Assembly: GCA_052390615.1 (NCBI GenBank)
Contig: JBQTGT010000007.1
Location: forward strand, 73,614-137,613
From: Actinomycetota bacterium
Lineage (GTDB): Bacteria > Actinomycetota > Acidimicrobiia > IMCC26256 > PALSA-610
Direction of reading: 5' to 3'
Length of the DNA: 64,000 bases
This document shows positions 17,072 through 64,000 of the stretch, in pieces. Position 1 is the first letter of the stretch. Each line of letters starts with the position of its first letter. The notes under the pieces were generated by a model, which saw only the letters and a program-made list of their open reading frames with translations, had not been told where the DNA came from and made no database searches. The position numbers and the translations under genes are program-made.

Positions 17072-18427
17072 ATGACGCCCTCCGACCGCGACGATCGACC
17101 GGCCAGCTCGCGCGCCAGCCGCCTCGTCGAGGCGCTGCCGGAAGGCACCTACGCGATCGGTGCGGGTTTGCTCGTCGCGGGCCTGACCGCGTACGGGTTC
17201 CAGATCCTCGCCGCCCGCCAGCTCACCGGAACGGAGTACGCGGCGCTCAATGGGCTGTGGGTGATCGTGTTCATCGTCGCGCCGGGCTTCTTCCAGCCCA
17301 TCGAGCAGGAGGTCAGCCGGGCACTCGCCCATCGCCGCGCCCAAGGGATCGGCGGCGGGCCGTTGGTCAAGCGGGCGGCGTTCCTCGGCGGGCTCCTCGC
17401 GGCCGCGGTCATGCTAATCGGACTGGCCGGGTCGCCGAAGCTGATCGACGAGGTGTTCCACGACGAGTCGTTGCTCGTCTTCGCGCTGCTCGTCGGTGTG
17501 TTCTCCTTCTATCTGGCGCACACCAGCCGCGGCGTGCTGTCCGGCAACGGCCGCTTCGGTGCCTACGGGATGATGCACGCGTCCGAGGGACTGCTGCGCA
17601 TCACTTTCTGTCTCGCGCTGTTCGTATCCGATGTCGGAACGCCATGGCTGTACGGCCTCGCGCTCGTGCTGCCGCCGCTCGGTGCGATCGGGATATCGCT
17701 GCGGGGACAGCGCGACCTTGTCACCCCCGGGCCCGAGGCACCGTACTCGGAGCTGTCGAGCGCGCTCGGCCTGTTGCTCGTCGGTTCGGTGCTGGCCCAG
17801 GCGCTGTCGTACGCGCCGTTCCTCGGCGCCAACCTGCTCGCGTCGGGGAGTGAGAAGGACATCGTCGGCAAATTCATCACCGGCTTGTTCCTCGCGCGCA
17901 TTCCGATCTTGCTGTTCCTGGCCGTGCAAGCCGCGCTCTTGCCCAAGCTCGCCGCGTTCGCGAGCGCCGGGCGTCACGACGATTTCCGCATCGGCATGCG
18001 TCGACTCGTGCTCGTCGTGGTGGGACTGGGCGTCATAGGGGTCATCGGGGGCGGCACGCTCGGACCGTGGGGAGGCGAGCTGTTGTTCGGCGAGGAGAAG
18101 TTCATCCTCGGGCGCCGCGACCTCGCATTGCTCGCGGCCGGGAGCGGCGGCTTCATCCTGGCGCTCACCCTCGCGCAGGGACTCATCGCGTTGCGGGCGT
18201 ACGGCGCGGCGATGGTCGCGTGGATGGTGGGCATCCTCGGCTTCGTGGCGGTGACCGCGCTCGGCGACGACCTGTTCCTGCGGGTCGAGCTCGGGTCGGT
18301 CGCCGGAGCCGCGCTCGCATCGGCCGTGATGGCCACGATGCTCGCGCTCCGGATGCGCCATGGCATCCCGAGCGGGGCGCTCGAAGAGCTGGTCGACACG
18401 ATCGGCCACGAACCGCCCGAGATATAG
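17072..18427 (+). CDS. Polytopic membrane protein, MOP/Wzx-like polysaccharide flippase candidate
   Basis: 451 aa with about 12-14 hydrophobic helices. It sits immediately upstream of ubiA-dprE1-dprE2. The family assignment rests on topology and context only. Confidence 0.55.
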   Translation: MTPSDRDDRPASSRASRLVEALPEGTYAIGAGLLVAGLTAYGFQILAARQLTGTEYAALNGLWVIVFIVAPGFFQPIEQEVSRALAHRRAQGIGGGPLVKRAAFLGGLLAAAVMLIGLAGSPKLIDEVFHDESLLVFALLVGVFSFYLAHTSRGVLSGNGRFGAYGMMHASEGLLRITFCLALFVSDVGTPWLYGLALVLPPLGAIGISLRGQRDLVTPGPEAPYSELSSALGLLLVGSVLAQALSYAPFLGANLLASGSEKDIVGKFITGLFLARIPILLFLAVQAALLPKLAAFASAGRHDDFRIGMRRLVLVVVGLGVIGVIGGGTLGPWGGELLFGEEKFILGRRDLALLAAGSGGFILALTLAQGLIALRAYGAAMVAWMVGILGFVAVTALGDDLFLRVELGSVAGAALASAVMATMLALRMRHGIPSGALEELVDTIGHEPPEI

Positions 18428-18450
18428 CGCCTTCGTAGACTGGAACACGC

Positions 18451-19416
18451 GTGAAGGCCCGTCGACCCATCGAATCCGCCAATGTCACCCAGTCGGCGCG
18501 CGACGAGATCGTCGTAATGGGGACAGCGACGCCTGCGTCCAACCCGTCGAAGGTCCGCGCGCTCGTGCGACTCGCGCGCCCGAAGCAGTGGGTCAAGAAC
18601 GTACTCGTGGTCGCCGCGCCCGGCGCCGCCGGCGTGCTTACCGAAGCCGAACCCGCACTCGACACCGCGATCGCGTTCGTGTGCTTTTGCCTCGCGGCCA
18701 GCGGTACCTACTACCTGAACGACGCGCTCGACGCCGACGCCGACCGAATGCATCCGACCAAACGGACCCGCCCGGTCGCGTCCTCGCAGGTTTCGGTTCA
18801 CACCGCGGTCGTAGGTGGCGTGCTCCTGCTGCTCGCCGCGGTCGCGCTCTCGTTCGTGGCGCGCGCCGAGCTGGCCCTGGTCGTCGTCGGCTATCTCGGG
18901 CTCACCATTTCGTACAGCGTGTGGCTGAAGCACGAAGCTGTGCTCGACCTCGCCGCGATTGCCGCCGGCTTCGTGTTGCGCACGATCGCGGGCGGCGTCG
19001 CCGTCGGCGTCACCATCTCGCCGTGGTTCCTCATCGTCGCGGGCGCCGGCTCGCTGTTCATGGTGACGGGAAAGCGGCACGCCGAGCTCGTCGAGCTGGG
19101 CGACGACGCGTCGACGCACCGGCCCGCGCTCGAGATGTACTCGCGGGCGTATCTGGGTTACGTGCGCGCGGTGGCGTCGAGCGTCGCGATCCTCGCGTAC
19201 TGTCTGTGGGCGTTCGAAAAAAGCGACGCGGTCGGCGAGGAGATCTGGTTCGAGCTGTCGATCGTCCCGTTCGTCCTCGGCATCTTGCGGTACGCACTGC
19301 TGCTCGAACAGGGCCGCGGCGGCGCACCCGAAGAACTGGTGCTCTCGGACCGAACGCTGTTCTTGATCGGCGTCGCGTGGGCCGCATTGTTCGCGGTCGC
19401 CGTGCACTATGGCTAA
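18451..19416 (+). CDS. ubiA: Decaprenyl-phosphate phosphoribosyltransferase (UbiA prenyltransferase superfamily, Rv3806c-like)
   Basis: ARPKQWVKN and [22 protein letters not shown] (NDxxDxxxD) motifs in a multi-TM protein. The start is uncertain (GTG 18451 or ATG 18517). Confidence 0.85.
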
Positions 19417-20821
19417 GTCGAGCCGCCACGGGCCCGGTATCCCGGGGAGCAGCGAGACGGGCGCCGACGAGCTGCTGGCCGGCTGGGGTCGCACCGCCCC
19501 GACGCGCGCGCACGTCCGCGAACCGCGACGTCTCGACGAGGTCGTCGCGCGCGTCACCGACGCCGGTCCGCGCGGCGTGATCGCGCGGGGGCTCGGTCGT
19601 AGCTACGGCGACGCCGCACAGAACGCCGGCGGCGACGTTCTGCGGCTCACCGAGATGGACCGCGTCCTCGAGCTCGACGTCGGCAAGGGGACGTGCACCG
19701 TGGAAGCGGGGGTCAGCCTCGACACACTCATGCGCGCGCTCCTGCCGCTCGGCTGGTTCCCGATGGTCGTGCCCGGCACCCGATTCGTCACCGTGGGCGG
19801 CGCGATCGCGTCCGACATCCACGGGAAGTTCCGTCACGGATCGTTTTGCGACTACGTCGAGCGCGCCCAGCTCGTGACCCCGGCGCGCGGCGTCGTCACG
19901 ATCGGTCCCGGCAGCGAACCGGACGCCTTCTGGGCAACCGCGGGCGGCATGGGCATGACCGGCGTCGTCACCGAGGCAACATTGCGGCTCCAGCCCGTCG
20001 AAGGTTCGCTCATCACCGTCGACACCGAACGGGCCAGCGACGTCGACGACTGCATGGCGCGCATGCTCGCCGACGACGACCGCTACCGCTATTCCGTCGC
20101 GTGGATCGATTGCCTCGCGCGCGGTTCCGATCTCGGCCGCTCCATCCTGACCCGCGGCAATCACGCGCCGGTTGCGGCGCTCTCTCCGAAGGAGCGCGAC
20201 CGAGCCCGCGTGTTCGCGCCCCGCAACGTCGTCAAGGCCCCGCGATGGGTTCCGGGCGGCCTCCTCAATCCGTTGACGATCGCCGCGTTCAACGAGGCGT
20301 GGTTCCGGCGCGCACCTCGTCACCGCCACGACGAGATTCAGACGCTGACACGCTTTTTCCATCCGCTCGACGGCGTGACCGGATGGAACCATGTGTACGG
20401 CCCACGCGGGTTCTTGCAGTACCAGTTCGTGGTGCCCTACGGCGCCGAGCAGGTCGTCCGTACCACGCTGGAACGCCTGAGCGACGCCCGCTGTGCGTCG
20501 TTCCTCGCCGTGCTCAAGCGCTTCGAGCACGCCGCGAACGGGATGCTCGGGTTCCCGATCGAGGGATGGACGCTCGCGCTCGACATCCCGCTGGGCGGAG
20601 ACGCGCTGGCCGCGCTGCTCGACGAGCTCGACGAGCTCGTGGTCGCGGCGGGCGGACGTGTCTACCTCACCAAGGACTCACGCCTGCGGCCCGAGCTTCT
20701 GCGCGCGATGTATCCAAGACTGGATCAGTGGCGGGACGCGCGGACCGCCCTCGACCCCCGACACCACCTGCGTTCCGACATGGACCGCCGGCTCGACCTC
20801 ACAGGGCAGGGACAACGATGA
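19409..20821 (+). CDS. dprE1: Decaprenylphosphoryl-beta-D-ribose 2'-oxidase (FAD-dependent), DprE1-like
   Basis: GWGRTAP and [18 protein letters not shown]-binding N-terminus. The C-terminus ([11 protein letters not shown]...MYPRLDQW) is colinear with my recollection of M. tuberculosis DprE1. The start overlaps the ubiA stop by 8 nt. Confidence 0.9.
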
Positions 20822-21576
20822 AAGACGCGCTCGGATCCGTGCAGTCGGTGCTGGTGCTCGGCGGAGGTTCCGACATCGCGCTCGCGACGTGCCGCGAGCT
20901 CGCGCGCCGGCGAAGCATTCGCATCGTGCTGGCCGGCCGCAAGCCGGAGGCGCTCGATGCCGCGGCCGCGGCGCTGCGGGCGGCGAGCGCGGAGGTCGAC
21001 TTGGTCGAGTTCGACGCGACCGACTTCGGGTCGCACGAATCGTTCGTCGAGAAGACGTTCGACCGGTACGGTGACTTCGACGTCGTGCTCGTCGCGTTCG
21101 GCGTCCTCGGCGATCAAGACCGAGCGGAGACCGACGCCGCCGCCGCGCTGGAGATCGTGCAAACCAACTTCACCGGCGCAGTCTCGGTCGCGGTCTCGCT
21201 CGCGCAGCGGCTGCGTACGCAGGGACACGGCACGCTCGTATTGCTGTCATCGGTCGCCGGCGAGCGCGCGCGGCGGTCCAACTTCGTGTACGGGTCGTCC
21301 AAGGCCGGCGTGGACGCCTTCTTCCAAGGGCTCGGCGACAGCCTGGCCGGGAGCGGCGCCCGGGTGATGATCGTGCGGCCTGGGTTCGTGCACACCAAGA
21401 TGACGACTGGTCTGGCGGCGGCGCCGCTGTCGACGACATCCGAACGCGTGGCGACCGCGATCGCACATGGCCTGGCGCGCGGCCGCGAGACTGTGTGGGT
21501 GCCCATGCCACTGCGATTCGTCATGTCCGTCTTGCGCCACCTTCCTCGATCCGTCTTCCGCCGGCTTCCGATCTGA
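20818..21576 (+). CDS. dprE2: Decaprenylphosphoryl-2-keto-ribose reductase (SDR), DprE2-like
   Basis: ATGA overlap with dprE1. Rossmann motif VLGGGSDIA, catalytic YGSSKAG (YxxxK). Confidence 0.85.
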
Positions 21577-21578: not shown

Positions 21579-22151
21579 GTGCCGCGCACGGTCGCCGCCT
21601 TCGATTTCGACGGCACACTCTCGCGTCGCGACACGCTCCTCCCGTTCCTTGCCTGGGTGGCGGGTTGGCGGCGTGTCGGCACCGCCGCGATCGCCGAGGC
21701 GCCGCGCCTCCGCCGGTCGGATCGGGACACGGCCAAGGAGCGGCTCCTCGTCCGCGTCCTAGGCGGGCTGCGTCACGACGTCGTCGCCCGCGAAGGGCAC
21801 GCCTACGCGACCCAGGTGTTCGAGCACAGGCTGCGGCCGAGCGTCGTCGCCAAACTCGAACGGCACCGAGCGCAGGGCCACGAGGTCGTCATCGTGTCGG
21901 CGTCGCTCGACGTCTACCTCACGGAGATCGGACGTGATCTCGGCGTCGCGGCCGTGCTGTGCACGCGCTTGGAGGTCGACGAACGCGGTCGTTGCACCGG
22001 CCGCATGGTCGGCGGCAACTGCCGCGGCGAGGCGAAGGCAGAACGCTTGCGCGCGTACCTCGGTGACGAGGAAGTCATGCTGTACGCGTACGGCAACAGC
22101 GCCGGCGACGATGCAATGCTCGCGCTCGCCGACTTCCCAACGCGCGTCTAA
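21579..22151 (+). CDS. HAD-superfamily (subfamily IB-like) phosphatase
   Basis: FDFDGTLS (DxDGT), VSASLD and GNSAGDDAML motifs. GTG start lies 3 nt after the dprE2 stop. Confidence 0.75.
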   Translation: MPRTVAAFDFDGTLSRRDTLLPFLAWVAGWRRVGTAAIAEAPRLRRSDRDTAKERLLVRVLGGLRHDVVAREGHAYATQVFEHRLRPSVVAKLERHRAQGHEVVIVSASLDVYLTEIGRDLGVAAVLCTRLEVDERGRCTGRMVGGNCRGEAKAERLRAYLGDEEVMLYAYGNSAGDDAMLALADFPTRV

Positions 22152-22225: not shown

Positions 22226-23833
22226 CTACCTCGGGACCAACTTGCCGGCGAGGCCGACGGCTTCGAATGTGCGACCGGCGGCGCTGCCGAGGAACGGCGC
22301 ATCGCCAAACGAGAGCAAGCCGCCGTCGCGCACGAGCAGCGCGTAACCGGCGCCGGTCGTCGTCGGGATCATGCCGACGACGGGACCGCGCAACGTGTAG
22401 TCGGCACCCGAACCGTAGAAGCCGGCGTTGCCGAACGCGAACACGCCGCCGTCTTCGGCAACCAGCCAATAGCCGTCGGCCTGCGGCCGCGCCGCCATCG
22501 CGACGATGGGCCGGTTCAAACGAATGCCGCCGGTCGAACCGAAGAACCGCGCGTCGCCGTAACTGAAGATGCCGCCGTCGAGCGCGTAGAGCCAGTAGCC
22601 GCCGCCCGTAGGTGTCGGACACATTCCGAGCACCGGCGCGTTCAGACGCAAGCCGCCGGTCGAACCGAAGAACCGCGCGTCGCCGAACGAGAACACGCCG
22701 CCGTCCCGGGCAACCAGCCAGTACCCGCTGCCCGTCGGCGCCGCGGCCATGCCGATCATGGGCGCGTTGAGACGCATGCCGCCGGTCGAGCCGTGGAAGT
22801 GGGCGGCACCGAACGTGAACACACCGCCGTCGCGCGCGAACAGCCAGTATCCGAGCCCGGACGGGTGGGCGGTGACCCCCGAGAGCTGCACCGGCAACCC
22901 CAACCGCCGAGTGTCGCCCTGGTCGGGGAGGTTGCCGAACGCGAACAGCCGCCCTTCGCGCGACGCGATCCAATAGCCAGTGCTGCCGTCGCGCAGACGG
23001 TCGGCGACCCGGTTCCGGATGTCAGGAAGCATCGACCACAGGGGTGCGCCCGGGCACGTGGTCGCCTTCGTGTCGCGATGACCGCAAATGTTGGGGATGA
23101 CGACGGTGTTGCCGTCGCCGTTGACGTAGGGCGTGGCCCCGAGCGGATCGATCCCCCACCGCGCGCACTTCCACGTGAGGAATGTGATCAACGACTCGAT
23201 CGCGGGCCCGGGCGGGGCCACGTCGGTGTAGGTCCCCATGAACGCAACACCGATGGTGCGCGAGTTGTGCGCGAGCGCGTGACCACCGCGCACGTTCGCG
23301 CCGTTGCGCTCACCGGTGTGCGCGACACCGGACGGATAGTCGGTTGCCCAACGGCCCTCGTACAAGCGGCCGTTGTGGTCGATCATCCAGTTGTACTGGA
23401 GGTCGATGTACTCACCGGCGACCGCGTGTTCGTAGATGCTGCGCAGGACGCCCGCGGGGTCGCCGGGATTGTTGGGCGTGACCGTGTGGTGGATCACGAG
23501 CTTCTCGACCCCGCCGTCGAATTCCTGACCTCCTTCGCGGATCGCCTCGTTGGCGCCCCACTCGCCTCGGGTGACGATCGCCGGCGCGGGCCAGTCGGGA
23601 CGGGGCGAGAGCACCGGGCGGGCGCCGGCGATATCGACCGGTCGCGCACCCGAGGTGCGCAACACCGGGGTGATCGCGAGCGCGACCGATGCACCGCCCG
23701 CGAGCCGCAAGGCCCCGCGTCGGTTGATCGTTACGCCGGTGTTCTGATGCTCCGGCTGTGCTCGGCACGCCGGACAGTCGTCGTGCCCGTCGGGCTCGCG
23801 ACCTTCGCTTTCGCTCACGGGTTCCCCCAGCAC
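22226..23833 (-). CDS. Secreted N-acetylmuramoyl-L-alanine amidase (amidase_2/PGRP-type) with a C-terminal tandem-repeat domain
   Basis: Tat-like NRRGALRLAGG leader. Amidase_2 features VIHHTVTPN...GHRD..TTCPG. About seven GYW/DGGVF repeats follow. The exact start is uncertain (GTG 23833 or 23818). Confidence 0.85.
   Translation of the reverse strand: MLGEPVSESEGREPDGHDDCPACRAQPEHQNTGVTINRRGALRLAGGASVALAITPVLRTSGARPVDIAGARPVLSPRPDWPAPAIVTRGEWGANEAIREGGQEFDGGVEKLVIHHTVTPNNPGDPAGVLRSIYEHAVAGEYIDLQYNWMIDHNGRLYEGRWATDYPSGVAHTGERNGANVRGGHALAHNSRTIGVAFMGTYTDVAPPGPAIESLITFLTWKCARWGIDPLGATPYVNGDGNTVVIPNICGHRDTKATTCPGAPLWSMLPDIRNRVADRLRDGSTGYWIASREGRLFAFGNLPDQGDTRRLGLPVQLSGVTAHPSGLGYWLFARDGGVFTFGAAHFHGSTGGMRLNAPMIGMAAAPTGSGYWLVARDGGVFSFGDARFFGSTGGLRLNAPVLGMCPTPTGGGYWLYALDGGIFSYGDARFFGSTGGIRLNRPIVAMAARPQADGYWLVAEDGGVFAFGNAGFYGSGADYTLRGPVVGMIPTTTGAGYALLVRDGGLLSFGDAPFLGSAAGRTFEAVGLAGKLVPR
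22229..22984 (-). repeat. Coding tandem repeat, about seven copies of the ~40-aa GYW/DGGVF unit
   Basis: Read directly in the translation of the last 252 residues of the amidase. Confidence 0.8.
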
Positions 23834-23972
23834 GTCCGCGAACTCGATCGGCAGGGCCCCTCCGCTTTGCAGGCAAGAGGCTTACATACGCGAGGCCCAC
23901 CTCCAAACCTCGAGCGCAATATCCGGCTCCGAGTGCGAACAAATCGTGCACTGTGTGTGGTACGAACGAGCG

Positions 23973-25112: not shown

Positions 25113-25122
25113 GGCGCCCTGC

Positions 25123-26214: not shown

Positions 26215-26244
26215 GCGGCAACCCCGATTTTGTATGGTGGCGCG

Positions 26245-29047: not shown

Positions 29048-29635
29048 ATCGGCACCCCACCGGCACTCAAGGAGTGGGCGGTCGTCGTCCACGCGCTCCT
29101 CGCGGGCGAGCAGGTCATCGATCTGCGCAAGGGCGGACTGCGCGAGGACGGGCGGCACTTCGATCTACCGGACCGGCGCTTCTGGCTGTATCCGACGGCC
29201 GAGCACCAGCGGCCGGAACTGTTGAAGGACGCGTACCGGCACTGGACGGATCTCGCGACCGCCGCGCCCGTCGGCGAACCGATCCCGATCCTCGGCTACG
29301 CCGACGTCGTCGACGTCGCGACGATCTCTGAACCCGAACACCTCGATGCGATCGAGGGCAAGACCGTCTGGTCGAGCGAGTACGCCGCGTCGCGACTGAA
29401 GTGGAAGCCGCGCGATCCGCTGTGGGTGCTCGTGCTGCGCGTGCACCGCCTCGTCGAACCGATCAATGTCGCCTGGAACGACCGCTACGGCGGCTGCACC
29501 TCGTGGGTCACGCTCGACGGACTCGCGGACGATCCGACGACGCTCGCGTCCGAGCCGGCGCTGCTCGATGCCGCGTTCGACGCGCGCCGCAAGAGCACGC
29601 GTGACGCGCTCCCGGCGGGGTGCTGGGACGGCTGA
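29030..29635 (+). CDS. DUF1802-like protein, function unknown
   Basis: The N-terminus ALKEWAVVVHALLAGEQVIDLRKGGLRE resembles my recollection of the DUF1802 family. GTG start overlaps the divergent hydrolase start by 18 nt. Confidence 0.65.
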   Translation: MSASSHIGTPPALKEWAVVVHALLAGEQVIDLRKGGLREDGRHFDLPDRRFWLYPTAEHQRPELLKDAYRHWTDLATAAPVGEPIPILGYADVVDVATISEPEHLDAIEGKTVWSSEYAASRLKWKPRDPLWVLVLRVHRLVEPINVAWNDRYGGCTSWVTLDGLADDPTTLASEPALLDAAFDARRKSTRDALPAGCWDG

Positions 29636-29653
29636 GGAACGCGCACGCGCGAC

Positions 29654-42202: not shown

Positions 42203-42211
42203 GTTCCTCAG

Positions 42212-56461: not shown

Positions 56462-57621
56462 CGCACCGCGATCACTGCGTAGTCGCACGCCGCGAACACG
56501 ACCTCGTTGAGACGCAAGACATTGCGCGTCGCAAGGTTGTCATCGGGATCGGTTTCGAGCAGGGTCGGTTCGGGCAGGTGCGATCGGTACTCGATCTCGA
56601 CTTCGCCAAACCCGGCCATGTCACACACCATCGCGAGATACTCTGGATCGACGAGTCGAACATGAGTCGCGTCGAGCCAGAACGATGACGCGTGCACGAA
56701 CAGGGACCGAGGGTTCGGCGTCTCGAGCACCAGCAGCCCGCCCGGGCGGAGGACGCGGCGGACTTCGTCGATGAGGTGCAGCAGCACTTCACGTTCCATG
56801 TGCTCGATGACTTGGAGTGAGACGAATCCGCCGAGCTCGCCTGCCGGGATCGCCGCGAGCGTGTCGAAGCCGTCGCCGCAGACGACCGGCAGGCCTTCCT
56901 TTTGTGCCACGACCGCGATGTTCGGATCGAGCTCGACACCGGCTGCGACGACTTCGCGAGCAGCCAGCAGGTGCAGGAAATCGCCCCGCCCGCACCCGAA
57001 GTCGAGAACCGGATCCTTGCCGATGAGCCGATCGGCCAGCGCCTCGTACTTGTACATGATGTCGTCGCGAGCGCCGCGAAATTTTTCCAGCGCGATCGGG
57101 TCGAACCACGACGGGTCCTCGCCGAACGAATCACGGCCAAGGAACCGCAGTCGAGTTTCGACGCGACGCGTCAGCTTCTCGAGCCGCGATTGGAGCGCGT
57201 CGACACGCGCGTGCAGGTTCTCGATCGTCCGCGACAGCGAGAGATCGGTCGACGCGAGTTCGTGCACGACGCCCTTCACTGCGTCGGCGTACTCCTCGAC
57301 GAGATGAAGCGCGCCCTGGACCTGGCGAGCAGTGATACCACCGATCGCGCGATGTGCGATCTGGCCCCCCGGCACCTTGGATTCGATAGTGATCCGCGAG
57401 CGGGGAAACCAGCCGGTCGACACGAGCGGCGAGATGACCTGATCAGCCAGACGCGGGCGGGGCGTGTCGGCGGTGACACGGAATTCCTGCACCCGCTCGA
57501 AGTGCTCGGCGAGATCGCGCTCGAGGTCGGGTGGGTAGGCCGCGGTCTGTCGGCGAGCCGCCACCGCCGCTTCGATCTGCTCGAGAAGCTGCGAGATCTC
57601 GATCGACTGGGGCTGATCCAC
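56458..57621 (-). CDS. Coiled-coil domain fused to a class I SAM-dependent methyltransferase (WbdD-like glycan chain-terminator candidate)
   Basis: GTG start after GAGGGAG. The N-terminal ~170 aa carry the shared motif (SKVPGGQIAHRAIGGITARQVQG) and heptad-like helices. The C-terminal half has SAM motif I VLDFGCGRGDF. Confidence 0.8.
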   Translation of the reverse strand: MDQPQSIEISQLLEQIEAAVAARRQTAAYPPDLERDLAEHFERVQEFRVTADTPRPRLADQVISPLVSTGWFPRSRITIESKVPGGQIAHRAIGGITARQVQGALHLVEEYADAVKGVVHELASTDLSLSRTIENLHARVDALQSRLEKLTRRVETRLRFLGRDSFGEDPSWFDPIALEKFRGARDDIMYKYEALADRLIGKDPVLDFGCGRGDFLHLLAAREVVAAGVELDPNIAVVAQKEGLPVVCGDGFDTLAAIPAGELGGFVSLQVIEHMEREVLLHLIDEVRRVLRPGGLLVLETPNPRSLFVHASSFWLDATHVRLVDPEYLAMVCDMAGFGEVEIEYRSHLPEPTLLETDPDDNLATRNVLRLNEVVFAACDYAVIAVR

Positions 57622-57709: not shown

Positions 57710-58990
57710 TCAGGCGCCGGACTCCTCGACCTGCATCTCCTTTCCGGCGAAGCGAATGTCCACGGGAAACGAGACGCTCCCGGCGGCGCGACCAGGATTC
57801 ATCACGGCGAACGACCATTGTTGTTCACGCCAGTCATAGACGGTGCCTTCGTCACGAGTTTGCGCCGCGAGCGTCACGAGATATGTGCCATCGAGCAGCG
57901 GAACACGATCGAACTCGAACGCGACCTCGCCCGCCGCGCCGCCGTCGATTGTCGGCACGCGCGTCTCAAGGATCTTGGTGTTCGTCCCGAACAGGTGATT
58001 GCCGTCTTCGTCGTGGATCGCGATGCCGAAGAGCAGATCGTCGGTGGACTCGCGCGCCGCGTACGACACGCGTATGGTCAGCGCCTCGTCGGGAAGTAGG
58101 TACGACCGTCCGACGAGGCGACCGGGATGGTCGAACGCGACGTCGGCGATGTGCACTCGACCGGTCGCCGACTGGGCCATGCGCTGGCCGTGCGACAACT
58201 CGACCCCCACTGCTGCCGACGTCGTGGCACTCGACGGGGGCGCGTCGTCGTCGTAGCTCTCGCCCATCTGGAGATGCTCTCGGAACGACCGCACGGCCTC
58301 GCCGGGCGGACCGTCGACAACCATGCGACCGTGGTCGAGGACGATCGCACGATCGCAGATGCGGCGAACGAGGTCGGCCGCGTGCGTCACGAACAGGATC
58401 GTGCGGCCCTCGCGCTGGAAACGAGCGACGCGCTCGAGGCACTTCCGCTGGAATGCTTCGTCGCCGACGGCGAGCACTTCGTCGACGAGCAAGATGTCGG
58501 GATCGACATTGACCGCCACCGCGAACCCCAAGCGGACGTACATGCCCGACGAGTAGTGACGGACCTGCATATCGATGAAGCGCTCGAGCTCGGCAAACTC
58601 GACGATCTCGTCGAAGATTCTCTCGGTCTCCTTCTTCGACAAGCCGAGAATCGACGCGTTCAAGAAGATGTTCTCGCGCCCTGTCAGTTCCGGGTGGAAG
58701 CCGGCCCCCAACTCGAGCAACGCCGCCAACCGGCCCCGGGTGACGATCTCGCCGTGCGTGGGCTGGAGGATGCCGGCGATGCACTTGAGCAGCGTCGACT
58801 TGCCCGACCCGTTGTGGCCGAGCAGCCCGACGGTTGCGCCCTCCGCGACTTCGAATTCGCAGTCGCGCAGCGCCCAGAAGTCCTCGTACGGCACGCGACC
58901 GAAGTGGATGACGCGCTCTTTCAGCGACGAGTAGCGCTCGTGCGAGAGACGAAACCGCTTCGAGACGCCCCGAACCTCGATGGCCGCCAT
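57710..58990 (-). CDS. wzt: ABC-transporter ATP-binding protein Wzt with a C-terminal glycan-terminus-binding beta-sandwich domain
   Basis: Walker A GHNGSGKST, signature YSSGMYVRLGFA, Walker B ILLVDE, then a ~170-aa extra domain (VHIADVAFDH...GTYLVTLAA). ATG at 58990. Confidence 0.9.
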   Translation of the reverse strand: MAAIEVRGVSKRFRLSHERYSSLKERVIHFGRVPYEDFWALRDCEFEVAEGATVGLLGHNGSGKSTLLKCIAGILQPTHGEIVTRGRLAALLELGAGFHPELTGRENIFLNASILGLSKKETERIFDEIVEFAELERFIDMQVRHYSSGMYVRLGFAVAVNVDPDILLVDEVLAVGDEAFQRKCLERVARFQREGRTILFVTHAADLVRRICDRAIVLDHGRMVVDGPPGEAVRSFREHLQMGESYDDDAPPSSATTSAAVGVELSHGQRMAQSATGRVHIADVAFDHPGRLVGRSYLLPDEALTIRVSYAARESTDDLLFGIAIHDEDGNHLFGTNTKILETRVPTIDGGAAGEVAFEFDRVPLLDGTYLVTLAAQTRDEGTVYDWREQQWSFAVMNPGRAAGSVSFPVDIRFAGKEMQVEESGA

Positions 58991-59085: not shown

Positions 59086-60279
59086 TCAGCGAGCGGCGAC
59101 GACGGCGTCCAACAACTGTTCGTAGCGGTCGAGGACGACGTCCCACGAGTACGCCTGCTCCACATACCTACCGCCGGCCGCGCCCATCGCGTCAGCTCGC
59201 GCGGGGTCACGCGCCAGCGCGTCGACCGCATCGCCGAAGTCATCGGGGCTCAGGTAGGCCACTCCTCCACCGCTGCGGTCGACATGACCGAGCGTGACCT
59301 CGCACCGCCGTTGCACGAGAACTGGTCGCGCTTTCGCGAACGCCTCGGCGACGACCATCGAGAAGGACTCGAAATGCGAGGGTTGCACGAGCGCGAGCGC
59401 GCCTGCGAGCGCGCTGTCGCGTATCGTCGCGTCGACGAAGCCGGTGACCACGATGTCGTCTCGACGAGGAACGTCGAGAAGCGGCGCGCCCAAGAGCACG
59501 AGTTGCATGTCACCACCTCGCGCGGCCTTGTACTGCGTGAAGAAGTGGAGCAACTCCGCCGCGCCTTTCCCGGCGTCGACGCGACCCACATAGACCAGGT
59601 AGGGATGATGTCCCACTGCCGGGAACTCCTGCCGGAACTGTGCATCGTCGGCGTGGCGCACGTCGACACCAATACCGACGACGGACCCGACAGGCTCGAT
59701 CCGGAAGCGCCGGCGGATCAGCGCGCGTTCCTCGGGCGTCGACAACGCGAATGCGTCCGGCAACCGAAATACCTCGTCGAACGGGACAAGGTGTAGCGGC
59801 GCTTCGTCGTGCACCGTGGGATGCAGCACCGTCGGCACGAGTCCCGCGGCCGCGCGCAGGCCCGCCCACGTCGGCCAGTAGAGGTAAGTGAAGAAGATGA
59901 CGCAGTCGAACCCGCGGCCGTGAGCAGCGAGCCACGGCGGCAGATCCGGGACGACCGGACCCTGACGTTCGAACCATTCGTATTGAGCGGCGACGGACCG
60001 AGGCGCTCGGCTGTCGAGCAGCTCGTTCGTGAGCGCGTCGAACGAGGCCTTGTCCCGCTTGGCCGCGACCGGCAGGCGATGCACGGCGACACCGGCCAAG
60101 TCGGACGTGCCGGGCTGGAACTCGTTGGCCCAATCGACGTTGGAGCTCGCGCACGTGGTCGCGACCTCGACCTCGTGGCCGCGCGCCGACAATCGTTGCG
60201 CGAACTCCAAACAGTGCTGTTCCGCGCCACCGGCGACGGTCTCGCCGTACCGCTGGACGACGTAGCACAGCCGCATCAT
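59086..60279 (-). CDS. Glycosyltransferase GT4, type-a paralog 3
   Basis: ATGA overlap with the upstream coiled-coil gene. N-terminus RLCYVVQRYGETVAGGAEQHCLEFA..RGHEVEVATTCASSNVDWA. Confidence 0.85.
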   Translation of the reverse strand: MMRLCYVVQRYGETVAGGAEQHCLEFAQRLSARGHEVEVATTCASSNVDWANEFQPGTSDLAGVAVHRLPVAAKRDKASFDALTNELLDSRAPRSVAAQYEWFERQGPVVPDLPPWLAAHGRGFDCVIFFTYLYWPTWAGLRAAAGLVPTVLHPTVHDEAPLHLVPFDEVFRLPDAFALSTPEERALIRRRFRIEPVGSVVGIGVDVRHADDAQFRQEFPAVGHHPYLVYVGRVDAGKGAAELLHFFTQYKAARGGDMQLVLLGAPLLDVPRRDDIVVTGFVDATIRDSALAGALALVQPSHFESFSMVVAEAFAKARPVLVQRRCEVTLGHVDRSGGGVAYLSPDDFGDAVDALARDPARADAMGAAGGRYVEQAYSWDVVLDRYEQLLDAVVAAR

Positions 60280-60758
60280 CCGTCAGGGAGTCGGGAGCGC
60301 ACGCGTTGCTCGAGATCATCGATGCGGCCGCGCATCTCCGTGATAGTGCGCCGCTGCTCGGCGATTCGCGTCTGCAGGTCGTCGAGTTGTTCGACGACGC
60401 CAGTGCCGAACTCACGACTCCACGTGGCCATCAACTCGACGACGTTCTCGAGCACACGATGGACGCCGTGCGCGTATTCCTGGGACTGCGCGAGCACGCC
60501 TTGCACCTGGCGAACGACTGTCTTCGCCACGAGCCGATGCACGACCGAACCGACGGGACGGCTGCTGGTCAGGTCGATGCGTTGCGCGTTGTACTCGAAT
60601 CGCGACAGTGCGTCGACCGCGTCCTCGAGCGCGGCGTAGACCGCCGGCGACAGCAACGGCGGATCGTCGACGCGCGGCATACCCTCCGCGCGACGCGCCG
60701 CGACCTGCGCACCGAGCCCGCCGAGCTCGTCGACTTGCGGCGACTCCGGTCCGCCCAT
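60276..60758 (-). CDS. Small coiled-coil protein, second stand-alone paralog of the methyltransferase N-terminal domain
   Basis: 160 aa. Motif TSSRPVGSVVHRLVAKTVVRQVQG, then helical heptads (QLDDLQTRIAEQRRTITEMRGRIDDLEQRV). Confidence 0.65.
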   Translation of the reverse strand: MGGPESPQVDELGGLGAQVAARRAEGMPRVDDPPLLSPAVYAALEDAVDALSRFEYNAQRIDLTSSRPVGSVVHRLVAKTVVRQVQGVLAQSQEYAHGVHRVLENVVELMATWSREFGTGVVEQLDDLQTRIAEQRRTITEMRGRIDDLEQRVRSRLPDG

Positions 60759-60779: not shown

Positions 60780-63050
60780 CTACGGCCGCACCGCCATGTC
60801 GACCGCGTGCCGACCGAGCGTCAGACCGGGCTGGCTTCCGTGGAACTTCGCGTCGCCGAACGAGAACACTCCGCCGTCGGAGGAAAGGACGTAGTAGCCG
60901 TTGCCGGTCAGCGACGGGCGCAGCTGGACGCCGGCCGGCGCGCGGCACAGACCGGTCCCGGGGATGCTCCCGAAGAAGGGGACGCCGAAGCTGAACACGC
61001 CGCCGTCGAGGCCGACGAGCCAGTAGCCGCCGGCGTTGCTAGTCCCCATCGAGATCACCGGCGCGTTCAGCTTCGTGCCACCGGTCGAACCGTAGAAGCG
61101 CGCGTCGCCGAAGCTGAACACGCCGCCGTCGGACGCGAGCATCCAGTAGCCGAGGCCGGTCGGCGTCTGCGCCATCGAGATGACCGGCGCGTTCAGACGT
61201 TGGCCACCCATCGAGCCCCAGAAGCGCGCGTCGCCGAAGCTGAAGATGCCGCCGTCGCGGCCGAGCAACCAGTACCCGCCATTGCCCGGCGTCGGCGCCA
61301 TCCCGATGATCGGCGCGTTCAGCGGCTGGCCTTCCATCGAGCCGTGCGAGCGCGCGTCTCCGAAGGTGAAGACCCGTCCCTGGCTGGTCAGGATGTAGTA
61401 GCCGTTCCCGGTCGGCGACACCTGGAGCGCGACCGCGGTCTCGCCCGGTCGCAGCGACCCGGCGACGCTGCCGAAGAACGGGGCGCCCCCGAATGAGAAC
61501 AGCCCGCCGTCCGCGCCGAGGAACCAATAACCGCGGGGCGCGGACGCGTCGGAAGCAGCGGCGGGCGGGTTGACGGCGCGACGGCACATGCCTGGTCCGA
61601 GGAGATTGCCGCCACTCTTCGGCGCGCCGTAGTGACGCGCGTCCTTGCGGAACATCGGCCACGGTGGCGTTCGTCCGGGCGGCGCGATGTTGTACGCCTG
61701 GATCGTTGTTGTGTTGTTCGGCGTGTTGAAGCCGGAAACGATCAGCTTCCAGCCGTGCGGGCCGAAATCGCCAACCGCGCCGGCCGCTTCGAAACTGGTC
61801 CACGTGTTGAGCGCGGCGATCTCTCCGCCGGTCGGTCCGTCGAGGACGAAGAATCCCCAGTTGTTTCCGACGCCCACGTCGTTGTCGCCATCGCCGTCCA
61901 TGTCGGCGATGATCGGCGACTGGACGCCACCACCGGGACCGGTGTTGAAGCGCAGCCCGGACTGCCAGAGGAGCTGGCCGTTCCCGCGAATGACGCGCAG
62001 CAAGCCGTCGTGACTGCCGGCGACCACGTCGACCACACCATCACCGTCGACGTCACCCAAGGCCGGTGCGGGCATCGTCGAGCCGCCGGTCGCGAACGGG
62101 AACCCGGGCTGGTTCGAGCCGTCCTCGATGTTGAACGCCCAGATCTTCTTGCCGTCGCCGCGGTTGTAGAAGTGGCCGGCGCCGGTGACCACTTCCATCG
62201 TCCCGTCGCCGTCGATGTCGCCGATGGCGGGGCTGGAGAAGAACGTGTCGTCGATGCGGCGCTTCCACCGCTCGGTGACTCTGCCGTCGTTCCAGTCGAG
62301 CGCGCGGAACTCACCACCGGAGTGGTCGATGTATCCCCCGATGAACTGGTCCGAGCCGATGAAGATCTCCATCCGGCCGTCGTCGTCGACGTCGTAGAGC
62401 GCCGGAGAGCTCCACGTCGAGTCCTCGACGTTGATCGGGAAGCCGGACAGCTCGTTGCAGTTGCGGTCGATCGCGTGGACGTGGAGGTCCCACGCGCCGA
62501 ACACGATGTCGGTCATGCCGTCGCCGTCGACGTCGCCGAGCGACGGTGACGAGTACACGCCGTTGTCGTTGGGCTGATAGTTCAGCGCCTCGAACCGACA
62601 CTTGACCGAACCGTCGCGGCGGAACACGATCACGCCGCCACGCTCGCGACGCCACGTCGAGCCCGCGCCGACGATCACTTCGTTGGCGCCGTCCGCGTCG
62701 ATGTCTCCGACGGCGGGCGAACCATCGATCGGAACCGCGAGCCCGGGACGCACCGACGCCGGCTGCGGCCAGCCGGGCAAGTTGTTGCCAGTGCTGGCAT
62801 CGAGCACGCGCACGTAGCCGTCCTGGTGGCCGTGCACGATGTCGTTCACACCGTCGCCATTGACGTCGGCGATCGTCGGCGACGAGCTGCGGTTCCAACC
62901 GCCGTAGGTGTGACTCCAAGCGAGCTGCGGCGCGGTGCCGGCGGCGACAGGGGTCGCGGCCACCATCGGCAGCGCGGGCGTCAGGAGTGCGATCAGGGCG
63001 GCAGCGGTACGGAAGCGCACGAAGACCTCGAGGAACGTCGGCGGGAGCAA
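60780..63050 (-). CDS. Secreted protein: seven FG-GAP/VCBS (integrin-alpha-like) repeats followed by seven GYW/DGGVF repeats
   Basis: Signal-like RTAAALIALLTPALPMVAATPVAAG. Seven Ca-binding-type loops (DVNGDGVND, DIDADGANE, DVDGDGMTD, DVDDDGRME, DIDGDGTME, DVDGDGVVD, DMDGDGDND). The C-terminal 253 aa are the repeat domain. The exact start is uncertain. Confidence 0.85.
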   Translation of the reverse strand: MLPPTFLEVFVRFRTAAALIALLTPALPMVAATPVAAGTAPQLAWSHTYGGWNRSSSPTIADVNGDGVNDIVHGHQDGYVRVLDASTGNNLPGWPQPASVRPGLAVPIDGSPAVGDIDADGANEVIVGAGSTWRRERGGVIVFRRDGSVKCRFEALNYQPNDNGVYSSPSLGDVDGDGMTDIVFGAWDLHVHAIDRNCNELSGFPINVEDSTWSSPALYDVDDDGRMEIFIGSDQFIGGYIDHSGGEFRALDWNDGRVTERWKRRIDDTFFSSPAIGDIDGDGTMEVVTGAGHFYNRGDGKKIWAFNIEDGSNQPGFPFATGGSTMPAPALGDVDGDGVVDVVAGSHDGLLRVIRGNGQLLWQSGLRFNTGPGGGVQSPIIADMDGDGDNDVGVGNNWGFFVLDGPTGGEIAALNTWTSFEAAGAVGDFGPHGWKLIVSGFNTPNNTTTIQAYNIAPPGRTPPWPMFRKDARHYGAPKSGGNLLGPGMCRRAVNPPAAASDASAPRGYWFLGADGGLFSFGGAPFFGSVAGSLRPGETAVALQVSPTGNGYYILTSQGRVFTFGDARSHGSMEGQPLNAPIIGMAPTPGNGGYWLLGRDGGIFSFGDARFWGSMGGQRLNAPVISMAQTPTGLGYWMLASDGGVFSFGDARFYGSTGGTKLNAPVISMGTSNAGGYWLVGLDGGVFSFGVPFFGSIPGTGLCRAPAGVQLRPSLTGNGYYVLSSDGGVFSFGDAKFHGSQPGLTLGRHAVDMAVRP
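60783..61541 (-). repeat. Coding tandem repeat, about seven copies of the ~40-aa GYW/DGGVF unit
   Basis: Read directly in the translation of the C-terminal 253 residues. Confidence 0.8.
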
Positions 63051-63303
63051 GTCCTGTATCGGCAGCCCAGCGGTACCGGTGTAGCAGCCGTCCCGACCCC
63101 GACCGGCGCGGTCAGACGCCCAGCCGACGCCCGGTCCGACTGTGATCGCTCTCTAGACTCCCGCCGTGTCCGCCAGAAGCTCATCGCTGCGTCACGATGT
63201 CCGCTCCGCGCTCGCCCGCGTCGCCGGACCTCGAGGCCGGGCGCTCTACCGCCGCGTGCGCGGGCGCACCCGGACGACGAACCCAGATCGGACGATCGCA
63301 CCA

Positions 63304-64000
63304 ATGGCGGCTCGCGTCCCGCCGGTCGTCGTGCACGACGAAACCGGCGCGCACATCGCCCCCGAACCGTCGCTCACCGCCCCACGATTCTTGTGGCCGA
63401 GCTATCCGCCGTCCGGTTACCTCGGCCAGCTCGACGACGGCTACCAGGCGACCCTGCGCAGCGAACGCTCGTACATCACCCGCGCCGACTGCGACTTCTA
63501 CCACACGTCAGAGCTGCGTGACGGCACCGTCGCACGCGGACCGTGGGACCTGCGCGGCCACGAAGCCGAGTATCTCGGCGGTGTCGAGGTGGGCGGACTG
63601 CGGGTCCTCGAGCTCGGACCCGCAACGGGTCACTTGAGCTTCTGGATGGAACAACAGAACGCCGATGTCGTGGCCTTCGACGTCGGGTACGACCGCATGA
63701 TCGATCTGATGGTCTACGGCCGCGAGGACCACCGCGCGCTCAAGATGGACCACGTCGGCCTCATCGGCGGCGTCCAGAACTCCTGGTGGTACCTGCACCG
63801 CGACAAGGAATCGCGCGTGCGCAAGGTGTACGGCAACATCTACGACCTTCCCGGCGACCTCGGCACGTTCGACATGAGCATCTTCTGCGCCATCTTGTTG
63901 CACCTGCGCGACCCGTTCACCGCGCTCGAACAGGCGGCGCGGCGCACCCGCGACGCCATCGTCGTCACCGAAGCGGTCGACCACAAGATGGCTTCGGATG
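63304..64000 (+). CDS. Class I SAM-dependent methyltransferase, 3'-truncated by the window end (absent from the ORF track because it has no stop in the window)
   Basis: My own translation from ATG 63304 gives MAARVPPVVVHDETGAH...WDLRGHEAEYLGGVEVGGLRVLELGPATGHLSFWME...DMSIFCAILLHLRDPF. It has a motif-I-like VLELGPATG and G/C-rich third positions, and stays open to position 64000. The antisense ORF 63508-63984 is rejected. Confidence 0.6.
   Translation, partial: MAARVPPVVVHDETGAHIAPEPSLTAPRFLWPSYPPSGYLGQLDDGYQATLRSERSYITRADCDFYHTSELRDGTVARGPWDLRGHEAEYLGGVEVGGLRVLELGPATGHLSFWMEQQNADVVAFDVGYDRMIDLMVYGREDHRALKMDHVGLIGGVQNSWWYLHRDKESRVRKVYGNIYDLPGDLGTFDMSIFCAILLHLRDPFTALEQAARRTRDAIVVTEAVDHKMASD

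Follow-up and report, generated by a model that had tools for sequence, protein, structure and literature searches.

A putative composite surface-glycan locus of an Acidimicrobiia-like bacterium: an arabinofuranose-donor core followed by candidate decoration modules

Does a long run of envelope-glycan genes that opens with the arabinose-donor genes known from mycobacteria specify one surface polymer or several unrelated products? This question is raised by positions 17072-64000 of a 64,000-nucleotide stretch of actinobacterial DNA (contig JBQTGT010000007.1, positions 73,614 to 137,613; hereafter the window), where the genes for a decaprenylphosphoryl-arabinose (DPA) donor are followed by glycosyltransferases (GT) of the GT4, GT2 and GT-C types, a Wzt-type exporter ATPase and two sugar cassettes. 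We give a probability of roughly 0.55 to the reading that this is a composite surface-glycan locus, in which one exported backbone with a conserved core is combined with exchangeable decoration modules, each pairing a polyprenyl-phosphate sugar with a GT-C enzyme. Such a locus is an unstudied combination of known parts and not a new kind of system.

Genes were called by codon usage, which gave 53 genes in the window, 41 of them within 17072-64000, and they are named here by their left-hand coordinate. Their order and count match the NCBI protein numbering of the source metagenome-assembled genome (MAG), from MGQ0823955 (gene 17072) to MGQ0823991 (the Wzt gene; locus tags ACT4OX_*). Identical sequences are also present in Logan assemblies of run SRR34758880. 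Many called genes overlap by 4 bp, which marks operons; the GC content ranges from 0.64 to 0.71 and no tRNA genes were found in the window. Families were assigned by Pfam and NCBIfam profile searches with the NCBIfam equivalog cut-offs as thresholds. Relatives were sampled through a DprE1 scan of 185,579 species genomes, and 80 DprE1 loci were compared (L-numbers are locus labels). The closest genomic relatives of the DprE1 were Acidimicrobiia MAGs (71% identity), which also have the housekeeping genes found upstream (lpd, E2 component, lipB-lipA fusion and peptidase) at 72-79% identity. The host, a non-mycolate member of the Actinomycetota, is therefore placed most probably in the class Acidimicrobiia, in keeping with the non-mycolate high-GC lineage proposed in the first-pass annotation.

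The arabinofuranose donor operon and the conserved core

The UbiA-type phosphoribosyltransferase, DprE1 and DprE2 all exceed their NCBIfam equivalog cut-offs (Table 1), so that the DPA donor module reported earlier is well founded. Homologues of the HAD-IB phosphatase occur in 17 of the 80 DprE1 loci and lie immediately 3' of dprE2 in the mapped ones. By analogy with the HAD-type phosphatase of a published pentofuranose system, it is a candidate 5-phosphatase acting on polyprenyl-phosphoribose-5-phosphate (PMC11127046). The first gene of the operon, 17072, encodes a protein with about 12 hydrophobic segments which is named "lipopolysaccharide biosynthesis protein" at NCBI. The protein itself has no match in Pfam, in NCBIfam or in a profile search of PDB sequences, while two of its seven orthologues match MurJ weakly (E 6e-4). 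Orthologues were observed directly upstream of UbiA in six DprE1 loci (L002 and L004-L008), and the family profile matches nine of the 80 loci. From these matches the protein looks like a candidate MOP-type flippase and not a GT-C.

A block running from the MOP-type gene through UbiA, DprE1, DprE2, the HAD phosphatase, an amidase, three GT4 genes, an Rmd-like gene, a hydrolase and a DUF1802 gene to a gene for a 146-amino acid (aa) protein was found to be syntenic, at 53-83% identity, in L002 and L004-L006, which are MAG contigs of Acidimicrobiia and Actinomycetes; the contigs of L002 and L005 end inside it. Within this block the amidase is syntenic at 55-58% identity in the same four loci. The three GT4 genes are also syntenic in L115, L117, L124-125 and L164, and many soil contigs share the gene order from them to the 146-aa gene. 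Past 31 kb, genomes differ in what they carry, though related cassettes recur in other combinations. Since synteny extends up to the 146-aa gene and the content past it differs, the site is conserved and the content variable: 17-28 kb forms a lineage-conserved core, to which the region beyond 31 kb adds a variable part in the manner of a serotype locus. As a whole, the 47 kb cannot be regarded as one conserved cluster, since only about 17-28 kb, with the flanking genes at 28-31 kb, is syntenic in relatives.

The three core GT4 proteins (23946, 25123 and 26230) are 31-39% identical to one another and their NCBIfam matches are generic only. The Rmd-like gene is translationally coupled to the third of them (26230). 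Its product matches PDB 2pk3, a GDP-6-deoxy-D-lyxo-4-hexulose reductase, best and over its full length (E 1e-59), followed by the GDP-6-deoxy-D-mannose reductase 6x3b (E 4e-52).

Candidate decoration modules, backbone and export

One of the exchangeable modules is a YerE-type branched-sugar cassette with the order rfbF-rfbG-rfbH-neuB-like-ThDP-GT2 (ThDP, thiamine diphosphate), accompanied by a short-chain dehydrogenase/reductase (SDR) and a methyltransferase. RfbF and the E1-type RfbH (34806) exceed their cut-offs (TIGR02623, 339 bits against 300; NF011936, 721 bits against 423), and the best match of the 4,6-dehydratase 33796 is CDP-glucose 4,6-dehydratase (TIGR02622) with 192 bits, under the cut-off of 278. 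The cysteines of RfbH are arranged as Cys194-X57-Cys252-X-Cys254-X7-Cys262, a spacing which we take to be that of the E1 [2Fe-2S] motif. The ThDP-dependent enzyme 37225 is by family a YerE-like carboligase with a predicted activity. It matches 8rph over its full length with 260 bits, compared with about 175 bits for acetolactate synthases, and 8rph is JanthE, a YerE-like enzyme (PMC12188165). It also falls far under the cut-off of all acetolactate synthase NCBIfam models and has a GDG motif at residue 454. Thus the CDP-dideoxyhexose set of the first-pass annotation is present as part of a larger cassette, and the unusual deoxysugar chemistry noted there is specifically that of an acyl-branched sugar of the YerE type.

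The NeuB-like protein 36134 scores under the NCBIfam NeuB and PseI cut-offs, and its best PDB match is the uncharacterised, SpsE-like 3g8r (2e-62, compared with 1e-19 to 1e-21 for true sialic acid synthases). In the window, as in each of the four other contexts examined, its gene directly precedes the ThDP gene, and in those four a homologue of the GT2 gene 39021 comes after the ThDP gene. No aldolase/HpcH/citrate-lyase-type gene was found in the cassette; the slot next to the ThDP gene is taken by the NeuB-family gene, here and in the four other contexts. That the NeuB-like enzyme supplies the alpha-keto-acid donor to the ThDP enzyme is pure inference. The GT2 39021 aligns over its full length with PgfS (3.5e-62) and ArnC (7e-35), both under cut-offs, and has hydrophobic segments at residues 232-290. 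As for the SDR and methyltransferase at 40967-43240, they are candidates for a YerF-like side-chain reductase and an O-methylase of the branched sugar.

This cassette is widespread in environmental Actinomycetota. With the SDR and methyltransferase, it was observed at 42-75% identity in unrelated contigs (the JGI 3300078620 contig, L085 and L167-L169), and none of the 120 best ThDP homologues listed falls below 62% identity. The ThDP protein of L167-L169 is found with an identical sequence in 135 blocks of the collection, which makes its actinobacterial host a very often sampled one, and the cassette there directly adjoins the cell-division and signalling genes fhaA-fhaB-pstP-rodA. We suggest, as a tentative possibility, that the cassette and its partner GT-C make an undescribed long-chain 4-C-branched 3,6-dideoxyhexose, with a side chain from a PEP (phosphoenolpyruvate)-dependent NeuB-type condensation and with polyprenyl-phosphate delivery to a surface glycan. 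If this is true, abundant uncultured bacteria would share a common sugar that has gone unrecognised, here combined with arabinofuranose (Araf) and 3-acetamido-sugar decoration of one exported backbone. The NeuB-like and YerE-like pairing would also offer enzymes for new carbohydrate chemistry and for the biocatalysis of tertiary alcohols.

A second module contains the 3-acetamido-sugar genes. The GFO/IDH/MocA gene product matches UDP-GlcNAc 3-dehydrogenase in NCBIfam (8e-45, under the cut-off) and the acetyltransferase is matched at 9e-21. The short GT2 gene 47235, which precedes them, is divergent from the GT-C-fold gene 45630 at a distance of 96 bp. By their best matches, neither of the two GT2s (39021 and 47235) appears to be a polymerising enzyme, and both are probably of the polyprenyl-phosphate glycosyltransferase type. 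Among the best matches of 47235, PpgS is the mycobacterial polyprenyl-phospho-GalNAc synthase. GC content at third codon positions (GC3) is lowest in the genes 47954 and 48970 (47954-50097, + strand), with 0.755 where the rest of the window has about 0.85; nothing else in the composition hints at a more recent acquisition.

Where the first-pass annotation had counted four GT-C-like proteins, we count five polytopic membrane proteins that lack a Pfam match (the DUF6311 assignment of 31210 being a precomputed one): two modelled GT-C folds, one profile relative, one that is a candidate only (52355) and the flippase-like 17072. None of the five matches the Arabinose_trans, AftA or GT87 families of Pfam at E up to 5. 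We considered whether they are paralogues and rejected this, as no pairwise BLAST similarity was observed and only 43237 links to DUF6311, by profile alone. The AlphaFold2 (AF2) model of 31210, built from 42 homologues, has a pLDDT (predicted local distance difference test) of 93, and all its significant Foldseek matches in the PDB are GT-C enzymes (AglB at 6e-9, STT3, DPY19, AftD, AftA, PglB and ArnT). The best TM-score is to AftD (TMq 0.61), with 0.47-0.54 for oligosaccharyltransferases, and Asp40 after the first transmembrane helix (TM1) is invariant. On this model, 31210 has a GT-C fold.

Protein 43237 matches the DUF6311 profile with an hhalign probability of 97% (E 7.6e-11 over 407 columns; hmmsearch E 2.9e-20), and its gene overlaps the SDR gene by 4 bp. 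It is homologous to a 583-aa protein that adjoins the cassette in L167/L169 (blastp E 2.5e-17 over 474 aa), and it is this homologue that ties 43237 to the branched-sugar cassette. The 502-aa protein 45630 matches no Pfam family and has 531 relatives in a representative library, with an invariant Asp73 after TM1. Its AF2 model (pLDDT 88) has as its top Foldseek matches ArnT (1.5e-4), EmbB, ALG3, EmbA, PIG-U and STT3 at probabilities of at least 0.98, compared with less than 0.4 for transporters. The GT-C fold of this model is moderately supported because the TM-scores reach just 0.4-0.47. Protein 52355 has a GDD motif after TM1, and its single homologue found (P0215, 58% identity) lies in a matching gene context.

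The backbone would be the work of GT4 enzymes, of which there are seven: 23946, 25123, 26230, 51160, 54195, 55394 and 59086. Group A consists of the three core proteins with the distant 55394, and group B of 51160, 54195 and 59086, which share about 46% identity; 51160 is 46-47% identical to each of the other two. All NCBIfam matches of the seven are generic, with none to a specific donor sugar. Methyltransferases are encoded by four genes (40006, 40967, 56458 and the partial 63304). A domain of about 100 aa is common to the small proteins 50683-51159 (+) and 60276-60758 (-) and the N-terminus of the methyltransferase 56458-57621 (-). The similarities are E 2e-7 between 50683 and 60276, 3e-3 between 50683 and the 56458 N-terminus, and 6e-9 between 60276 and the 56458 N-terminus. 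Both small proteins are encoded directly upstream of a group-B GT4 gene, and 56458 is likewise upstream of one with the GT4 gene 55394 between them. The domain has a conserved G-x-VHR-x-V-x-x-T/I-x-RQ-x-QG stretch and a coiled-coil-like tail, and in 60276 weak matches to coiled-coil families fall at residues 118-156.

The unit of GT4-B, GT4 and methyltransferase at 54195-57621 is a candidate polymerase and terminator unit. This triad also stands beside dprE2 in L040 and beside DUF6311 in L084, and it recurs in L086 at 64-80% identity and beyond the 146-aa gene in L124-126 and L137. The Wzt protein matches TagH and the galactan-export Wzt/RfbE models of NCBIfam under their cut-offs (182 bits against 400 for the galactan exporter) and is 51% identical to the Wzt of L008, which has a Wzm gene two genes upstream. 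Because the coiled-coil-like domains occur together with Wzt_C, chain capping with cap-dependent export is suggested, by analogy with the O9a system. We looked for a hidden Wzm in the window and rejected the candidates: tblastn with the L008 Wzm gave only a 46-aa match (E 0.07), and the six-helix protein 10293 is unrelated. The latter (10293-11147, - strand; 284 aa) has six hydrophobic segments and no Pfam or NCBIfam match, and is syntenic with housekeeping genes in L004, L006 and L007.

Taken together, these parts could work as follows. GT4 enzymes would build the polymer in the cytoplasm on a polyprenyl carrier; the three core GT4s and Rmd would give a 6-deoxyhexose (D-rhamnose-type) backbone, and the GT4-B/GT4 units would add or vary domains. 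Methyltransferases with, or paired to, the coiled-coil-like domain would cap the chain, Wzt_C would recognise the cap, and the chain would be exported with a Wzm encoded elsewhere. Once outside the membrane, the polymer would receive its decorations from three polyprenyl-monophosphate sugars, each served by a GT-C of its own. The phospho-arabinofuranose would be made by UbiA, the HAD phosphatase, DprE1 and DprE2, flipped by the 12-TM protein 17072 and used by 31210 or 52355. A 4-C-branched 3,6-dideoxyhexose would be formed from CDP-glucose through RfbF/G/H, the ThDP branch and a NeuB-derived keto acid, and after tailoring by the SDR and methyltransferases it would be loaded by 39021 and transferred by 43237. 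The 3-acetamido sugar would be made by the GFO, DegT and acetyltransferase enzymes, with 47235 loading and 45630 transferring it.

Table 1. Features of positions 17072-64000 of the window (aa, amino acids; TM, transmembrane; SAM, S-adenosylmethionine)
Position (strand)	Product	Basis or proposed role
17072..18427 (+)	451-aa protein, ~12 TM helices; first gene of DPA operon	Candidate MOP-superfamily flippase for lipid-linked donor
18451..19416 (+)	UbiA-type decaprenyl-phosphate phosphoribosyltransferase	NCBIfam NF008978, 368.9 bits, cut-off 207; Pfam UbiA
19409..20821 (+)	DprE1 (decaprenylphosphoryl-ribose oxidase)	NF053785, 560 bits, cut-off 500
20818..21576 (+)	DprE2 (2-keto reductase)	NF053786, 358 bits, cut-off 250; 4-bp overlap with dprE1
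21579..22151 (+)	HAD-IB phosphatase	TIGR01490, 123.5 bits, cut-off 98
22226..23833 (-)	N-acetylmuramoyl-L-alanine amidase family protein, 535 aa	Pfam Amidase_2, E 5e-16
23946..27372 (+)	Three paralogous GT4 (group A: 23946, 25123, 26230)	Pfam Glycos_transf_1 and Glyco_transf_4
27369..28280 (+)	Rmd-like GDP-4-keto-6-deoxymannose reductase, SDR, 303 aa	PDB matches (see text)
28268..31161	Four non-glycan genes: alpha/beta hydrolase (-), DUF1802 (+), DUF554 (-), 146-aa single-TM protein (-)	Pfam
31210..32973 (+)	DUF6311 GT-C glycosyltransferase, 587 aa	Precomputed Pfam PF19830; AF2 model
33044..36137 (+)	rfbF-rfbG-rfbH: glucose-1-phosphate cytidylyltransferase, 4,6-dehydratase, E1-type 3-dehydrase	NCBIfam
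36134..37228 (+)	NeuB-family PEP-dependent synthase, NeuB and SAF domains	Pfam NeuB, E 3e-37
37225..39021 (+)	YerE-like ThDP-dependent carboligase (predicted)	Best PDB match 8rph
39021..39974 (+)	GT2, ArnC/GtrB/PgfS type, C-terminal TM helices	Candidate polyprenyl-phosphate:branched-sugar transferase
40006..40935 (+)	FkbM-family methyltransferase	TIGR01444, 92 bits, cut-off 37.7
40967..43240 (-)	Class I SAM methyltransferase (389 aa) and SDR (342 aa)	Pfam
43237..45549 (-)	GT-C glycosyltransferase, distant DUF6311 relative; 729-770 aa by start codon	Profile; candidate branched-sugar transferase
45630..47138 (-)	502-aa GT-C-fold membrane protein, undescribed family	AF2 model; candidate amino-sugar transferase
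47235..47957 (+)	Short GT2, polyprenyl-phosphate-sugar synthase type	NCBIfam AglJ 1e-25, PpgS 1e-21, Dol-P-hexose transferase 1e-18, all under cut-offs
47954..50662 (+)	3-acetamido-sugar set: GFO/IDH/MocA 3-dehydrogenase-like, DegT aminotransferase, NeuD/PglB/VioB-type N-acetyltransferase	Pfam
50683..52368 (+)	158-aa protein and group-B GT4 (51160)	Unit kept in L086 at 60-72%
52355..54226 (-)	616-623-aa membrane protein, ~10 TM helices and C-terminal soluble domain	GT-C candidate
54195..57621 (-)	GT4-B, GT4, methyltransferase with extra ~190-aa N-terminal domain	Pfam
57710..58990 (-)	Wzt-type ABC exporter ATPase, C-terminal glycan-binding domain	Pfam ABC_tran 7e-22; PF14524 Wzt_C 1e-22, residues 275-399
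59086..60758 (-)	160-aa protein (60276), coiled-coil-like C-terminus, and group-B GT4	4-bp overlap
60780..63050 (-)	Secreted FG-GAP repeat protein, 756 aa	Pfam FG-GAP 1e-22; N-terminal hydrophobic segment
63304..63999 (+)	Methyltransferase-like, cut by window end	Methyltransf_11/Methyltransf_25 E 4e-4; TIGR04290 E 7e-6

One glycan or several

Modules of the locus were repeatedly found together elsewhere. L086 repeats 50683-57621 of the window at 58-80% identity, and in the P0097 JGI contig the ThDP cassette stands beside GT4/GT4 and a small protein. In L008 the order is dprE2-HAD-Wzm-GT4-Wzt-(677-aa membrane protein)-GT4-GT4-Rmd. Bulk GC falls from about 0.70 to about 0.66 into the 31-64 kb half, a level as low as that of metH, whereas GC3 is 0.86 in the housekeeping genes, 0.85 in the core and 0.84 in the variable part. 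A recent horizontal transfer of 31-64 kb was thus considered and is not supported, given the uniform GC3, with the mild dip in the amino-sugar genes as the exception. Since the modules are repeatedly together elsewhere and GC3 is uniform, one glycan system is favoured.

In the soil-contig relatives, a membrane protein of about 700 aa follows the 146-aa gene, and then relatives of the GT4-B gene 59086, the GT4 gene 55394 and the methyltransferase gene 56458; no DUF6311, branched-sugar or amino-sugar genes were found there. The membrane protein belongs to a family with 11-17 predicted TM helices (L124:7853-9973, L137:7895-9991, L115:5480-7798 and 7799-9901, L008:16128-18161), which has no sequence match in the PDB. 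It lies between the 146-aa gene and the GT4/methyltransferase genes in relatives and right after Wzt in L008, and may serve those genomes as the arabinosyltransferase of the core.

Several observations weigh against a single composite glycan. The core-adjacent membrane protein of close relatives, just described, belongs to a family that is absent from the window. The locus comprises at least eight transcription units in both orientations, and a single product does not follow from such an arrangement. Neither Wzm nor another ABC-2 permease was found in the 64 kb, nor an initiating phosphoglycosyltransferase, an LCP-type ligase or gmd/manB/manC, and an E3 reductase gene is absent from the window and from the four other cassette contexts, so that genes outside the 64 kb must provide essential steps. 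The pairing of GT-Cs with donors was read from gene adjacency only, and the comparison of 52355 with two GT-C profiles was not significant (hhalign probabilities of 8-11%). The backbone sugar is a guess from the Rmd homologue alone. No paper in the searchable literature pairs NeuB-type enzymes with YerE-type branching. Finally, the flippase candidate of the window is a 451-aa protein with 12 TM helices and weak MurJ evidence, whereas the published flippase of a pentofuranose system is a small 4-TM protein (PMC11127046), and our gene model contains no small 4-TM protein.

Some of these observations lend themselves to a serious rival, which we nevertheless consider rather unlikely. It holds that the locus is a mosaic, with a core Araf-decorated polymer (17-28 kb) and separate, strain-specific products (31-64 kb) gathered at a chromosomal hot spot. 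Only 17-31 kb is syntenic while the far side varies, the branched-sugar cassette is found elsewhere without DPA genes within 8-10 kb, DUF6311 homologues are also found away from DPA genes, four unrelated genes separate the two halves, and there are several divergent and convergent transcription units. The placing of the exporter does not fit such a division, because Wzt, the sole exporter component, lies in the variable half of the window and yet Wzm and Wzt are inside the core block in L008. Furthermore, the GT4/GT4/methyltransferase triad directly follows dprE2 in L040 and takes the same far-side site in L124-126 and L137, and GC3 is nearly equal in the two halves (0.85 and 0.84).

An arabinogalactan-like polymer, in which DPA feeds GT-Cs that polymerise an arabinan on an exported linker, covalently bound to peptidoglycan, seems to us unlikely. 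The DPA genes are true ones, several GT-C folds are present with AftD as the structure closest to DUF6311, the Wzt resembles the mycobacterial galactan exporter ATPase among the NCBIfam models and an amidase lies in the conserved block. However, the match to that exporter is less than half of its cut-off, no Glf/GlfT, no Emb/AftA/AftB/AftC at Pfam E up to 5 and no LCP ligase were found, and the two other GT2 and GT-C pairs point to decoration. In addition, non-mycobacterial UbiA/DprE1/DprE2 systems in the literature add single Araf side chains and not an arabinan (PMC11127046). The least probable reading is protein glycosylation, with a lipid-linked glycan exported and a GT-C acting as oligosaccharyltransferase on surface or S-layer proteins: the best E-values of DUF6311 are to AglB and STT3, GT2 47235 is closest to AglJ of archaeal S-layer N-glycosylation, 2pk3, the closest solved Rmd homologue, presumably comes from an S-layer-glycan producer and the FG-GAP gene immediately precedes the Wzt unit in the same orientation, but the TM-scores to oligosaccharyltransferases are lower than that to AftD, no WWDxG-type motif was seen by eye in the DUF6311 sequence, no S-layer protein gene was identified, and the amidase and Wzt_C fit a polysaccharide equally well.

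The composite glycan remains our preferred reading, and every item of the earlier inventory of 17072-64000 was located by Pfam or NCBIfam. The description of that run as nearly uninterrupted needs to be qualified, since it is broken at 28268-31161 by four non-glycan genes. Three of these, the hydrolase, DUF1802 and 146-aa genes, are syntenic in relatives. The 5' ends of the hydrolase (28268-29158, -) and DUF1802 (29030-29635, +) genes overlap by about 129 bp as called, an overlap that L006 and L115 show as well; the true hydrolase start may lie further downstream than the one called. The 146-aa protein (30721-31161, -) has a single TM helix at its N-terminus and belongs to no Pfam or NCBIfam family, and 145 relatives at 64-82% identity were found in soil metagenomes; in most longer contigs its gene adjoins the block of three GT4 genes and Rmd. 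Upstream of the DPA operon, a 532-aa open reading frame (12354-13952, -) with LplA-B_cat, LIAS_N and Radical_SAM domains is a LipB-LipA fusion, found at 74-75% identity in L002, L004 and L006.

Comparison with known systems

Surface glycan structures are not known for any member of the class Acidimicrobiia, which abounds in metagenomes from soil, fresh water and the sea. We found no characterised polymer of this class in the searchable literature, which is consistent with the uncharacterised polymer postulated by the first-pass annotation. The one chemical record found for the class gives the whole-cell sugars of a single isolate as rhamnose, ribose, mannose and galactose (PMC12263773). The presence of rhamnose agrees with the Rmd lead, arabinose is not on the list, and the comparison proves little. 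Attachment of the product to the wall is likewise unproven: peptidoglycan, lipid and protein are all candidate anchors, and the LCP ligase, initiating transferase and Wzm are missing from the window. All of this is predicted from sequence, and large uncharacterised glycan loci are common in MAGs, so that the locus is a useful lead and no surprise.

The mycobacterial arabinogalactan region (Rv3779-Rv3809c) shares UbiA/DprE1/DprE2 equivalogs, a Wzt-like ATPase and GT-C-fold enzymes with the window. The first-pass annotation had noted arabinogalactan-like logic together with the lack of glf/glfT, recognisable emb/aft and mycolate genes. The second point stands, as none of the Glf/GlfT, Emb/Aft or mycolate families appears in any Pfam or NCBIfam table for 17-64 kb. 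The first holds only for the DPA module; GT-C enzymes and a Wzt are present too, but beyond DPA and GT-C the resemblance is thin. A glycan exported by an ABC transporter and decorated by modules of polyprenyl-phosphate sugars with GT-Cs is the better comparison. In contrast to the mycobacterial region, the window has no glf/glfT1/glfT2, Emb/Aft families or mycolyltransferases, carries a HAD phosphatase in place of the PAP2-type Rv3807c and lacks a GtrA-like Rv3789. Its Wzt has a C-terminal carbohydrate-binding domain, and seven GT4s and two deoxy- and amino-sugar cassettes are extra. Mycobacterium does pair the polyprenyl-phospho-aminosugar synthase PpgS with the GT-C Rv3779, and 47235 with 45630 resembles that pair.

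Yersiniose, erwiniose, caryophyllose and gastriose are made by a common route, in which CDP-4-keto-3,6-dideoxyglucose is joined by a YerE-like enzyme to an alpha-keto acid from an aldolase and the product is then reduced and sometimes methylated; the described clusters carry a pyruvate aldolase such as ErwI, MMAR_2331 or MygI (PMC9306805). The cassette of the window agrees with this route in its predicted genes for CDP-glucose synthesis, 4,6-dehydration and E1 deoxygenation and in its YerE-like carboligase, SDR and methyltransferases. It differs in having a NeuB-family synthase with a SAF domain instead of the aldolase and in lacking an E3 gene. The ArnC/GtrB-type GT2 gene that directly follows the ThDP gene is a further difference and implies that the sugar is delivered by way of a polyprenyl-phosphate carrier and a GT-C.

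ABC transporter-dependent O-polysaccharides of the E. coli O9a type are similar in Wzt_C, in methyltransferases linked to coiled-coil-like segments and in several GT4s with Rmd. The set of three GT4s and Rmd also recalls D-rhamnan loci such as that of the common polysaccharide antigen (CPA) of Pseudomonas aeruginosa. Unlike those of the O9a type, the window has no Wzm, gmd or kinase domain, and its putative coiled-coil element is short, being spread over two free proteins of about 160 aa and one methyltransferase N-terminus. Coiled-coil terminators are a hallmark of ABC transporter-dependent glycans (PMC11127046).

The closest parallel is the three-component pentofuranose system of Citrobacter youngae O1/O2. 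It combines a UbiA-like synthase with a HAD phosphatase, a flippase and a GT-C of family GT136, uses DprE1/E2 homologues for Araf, and decorates, outside the cytoplasm and after polymerisation, a Wzm/Wzt-dependent backbone that is capped by a coiled-coil terminator and includes an Rmd-derived sugar (PMC11127046). In the operon 17072-22151 the corresponding parts are UbiA as the polyprenyl-phosphoribose synthase, the HAD phosphatase, DprE1/E2 and the candidate flippase 17072. Here the phosphatase stands alone as a HAD-IB protein and is not fused as a domain, no GT-C adjoins the DPA operon, and the GT-Cs of the window are DUF6311-type or unclassified. The Acidimicrobiia-like host is presumably monoderm, so that there is no lipid A-core acceptor. 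DprE1 is also the target of the anti-tuberculosis benzothiazinones. If our reading is right, the DprE1/DprE2 arabinose donor would serve outside the mycolate actinobacteria, probably for side-chain decoration, and the three-component concept would extend to monoderm Actinomycetota.

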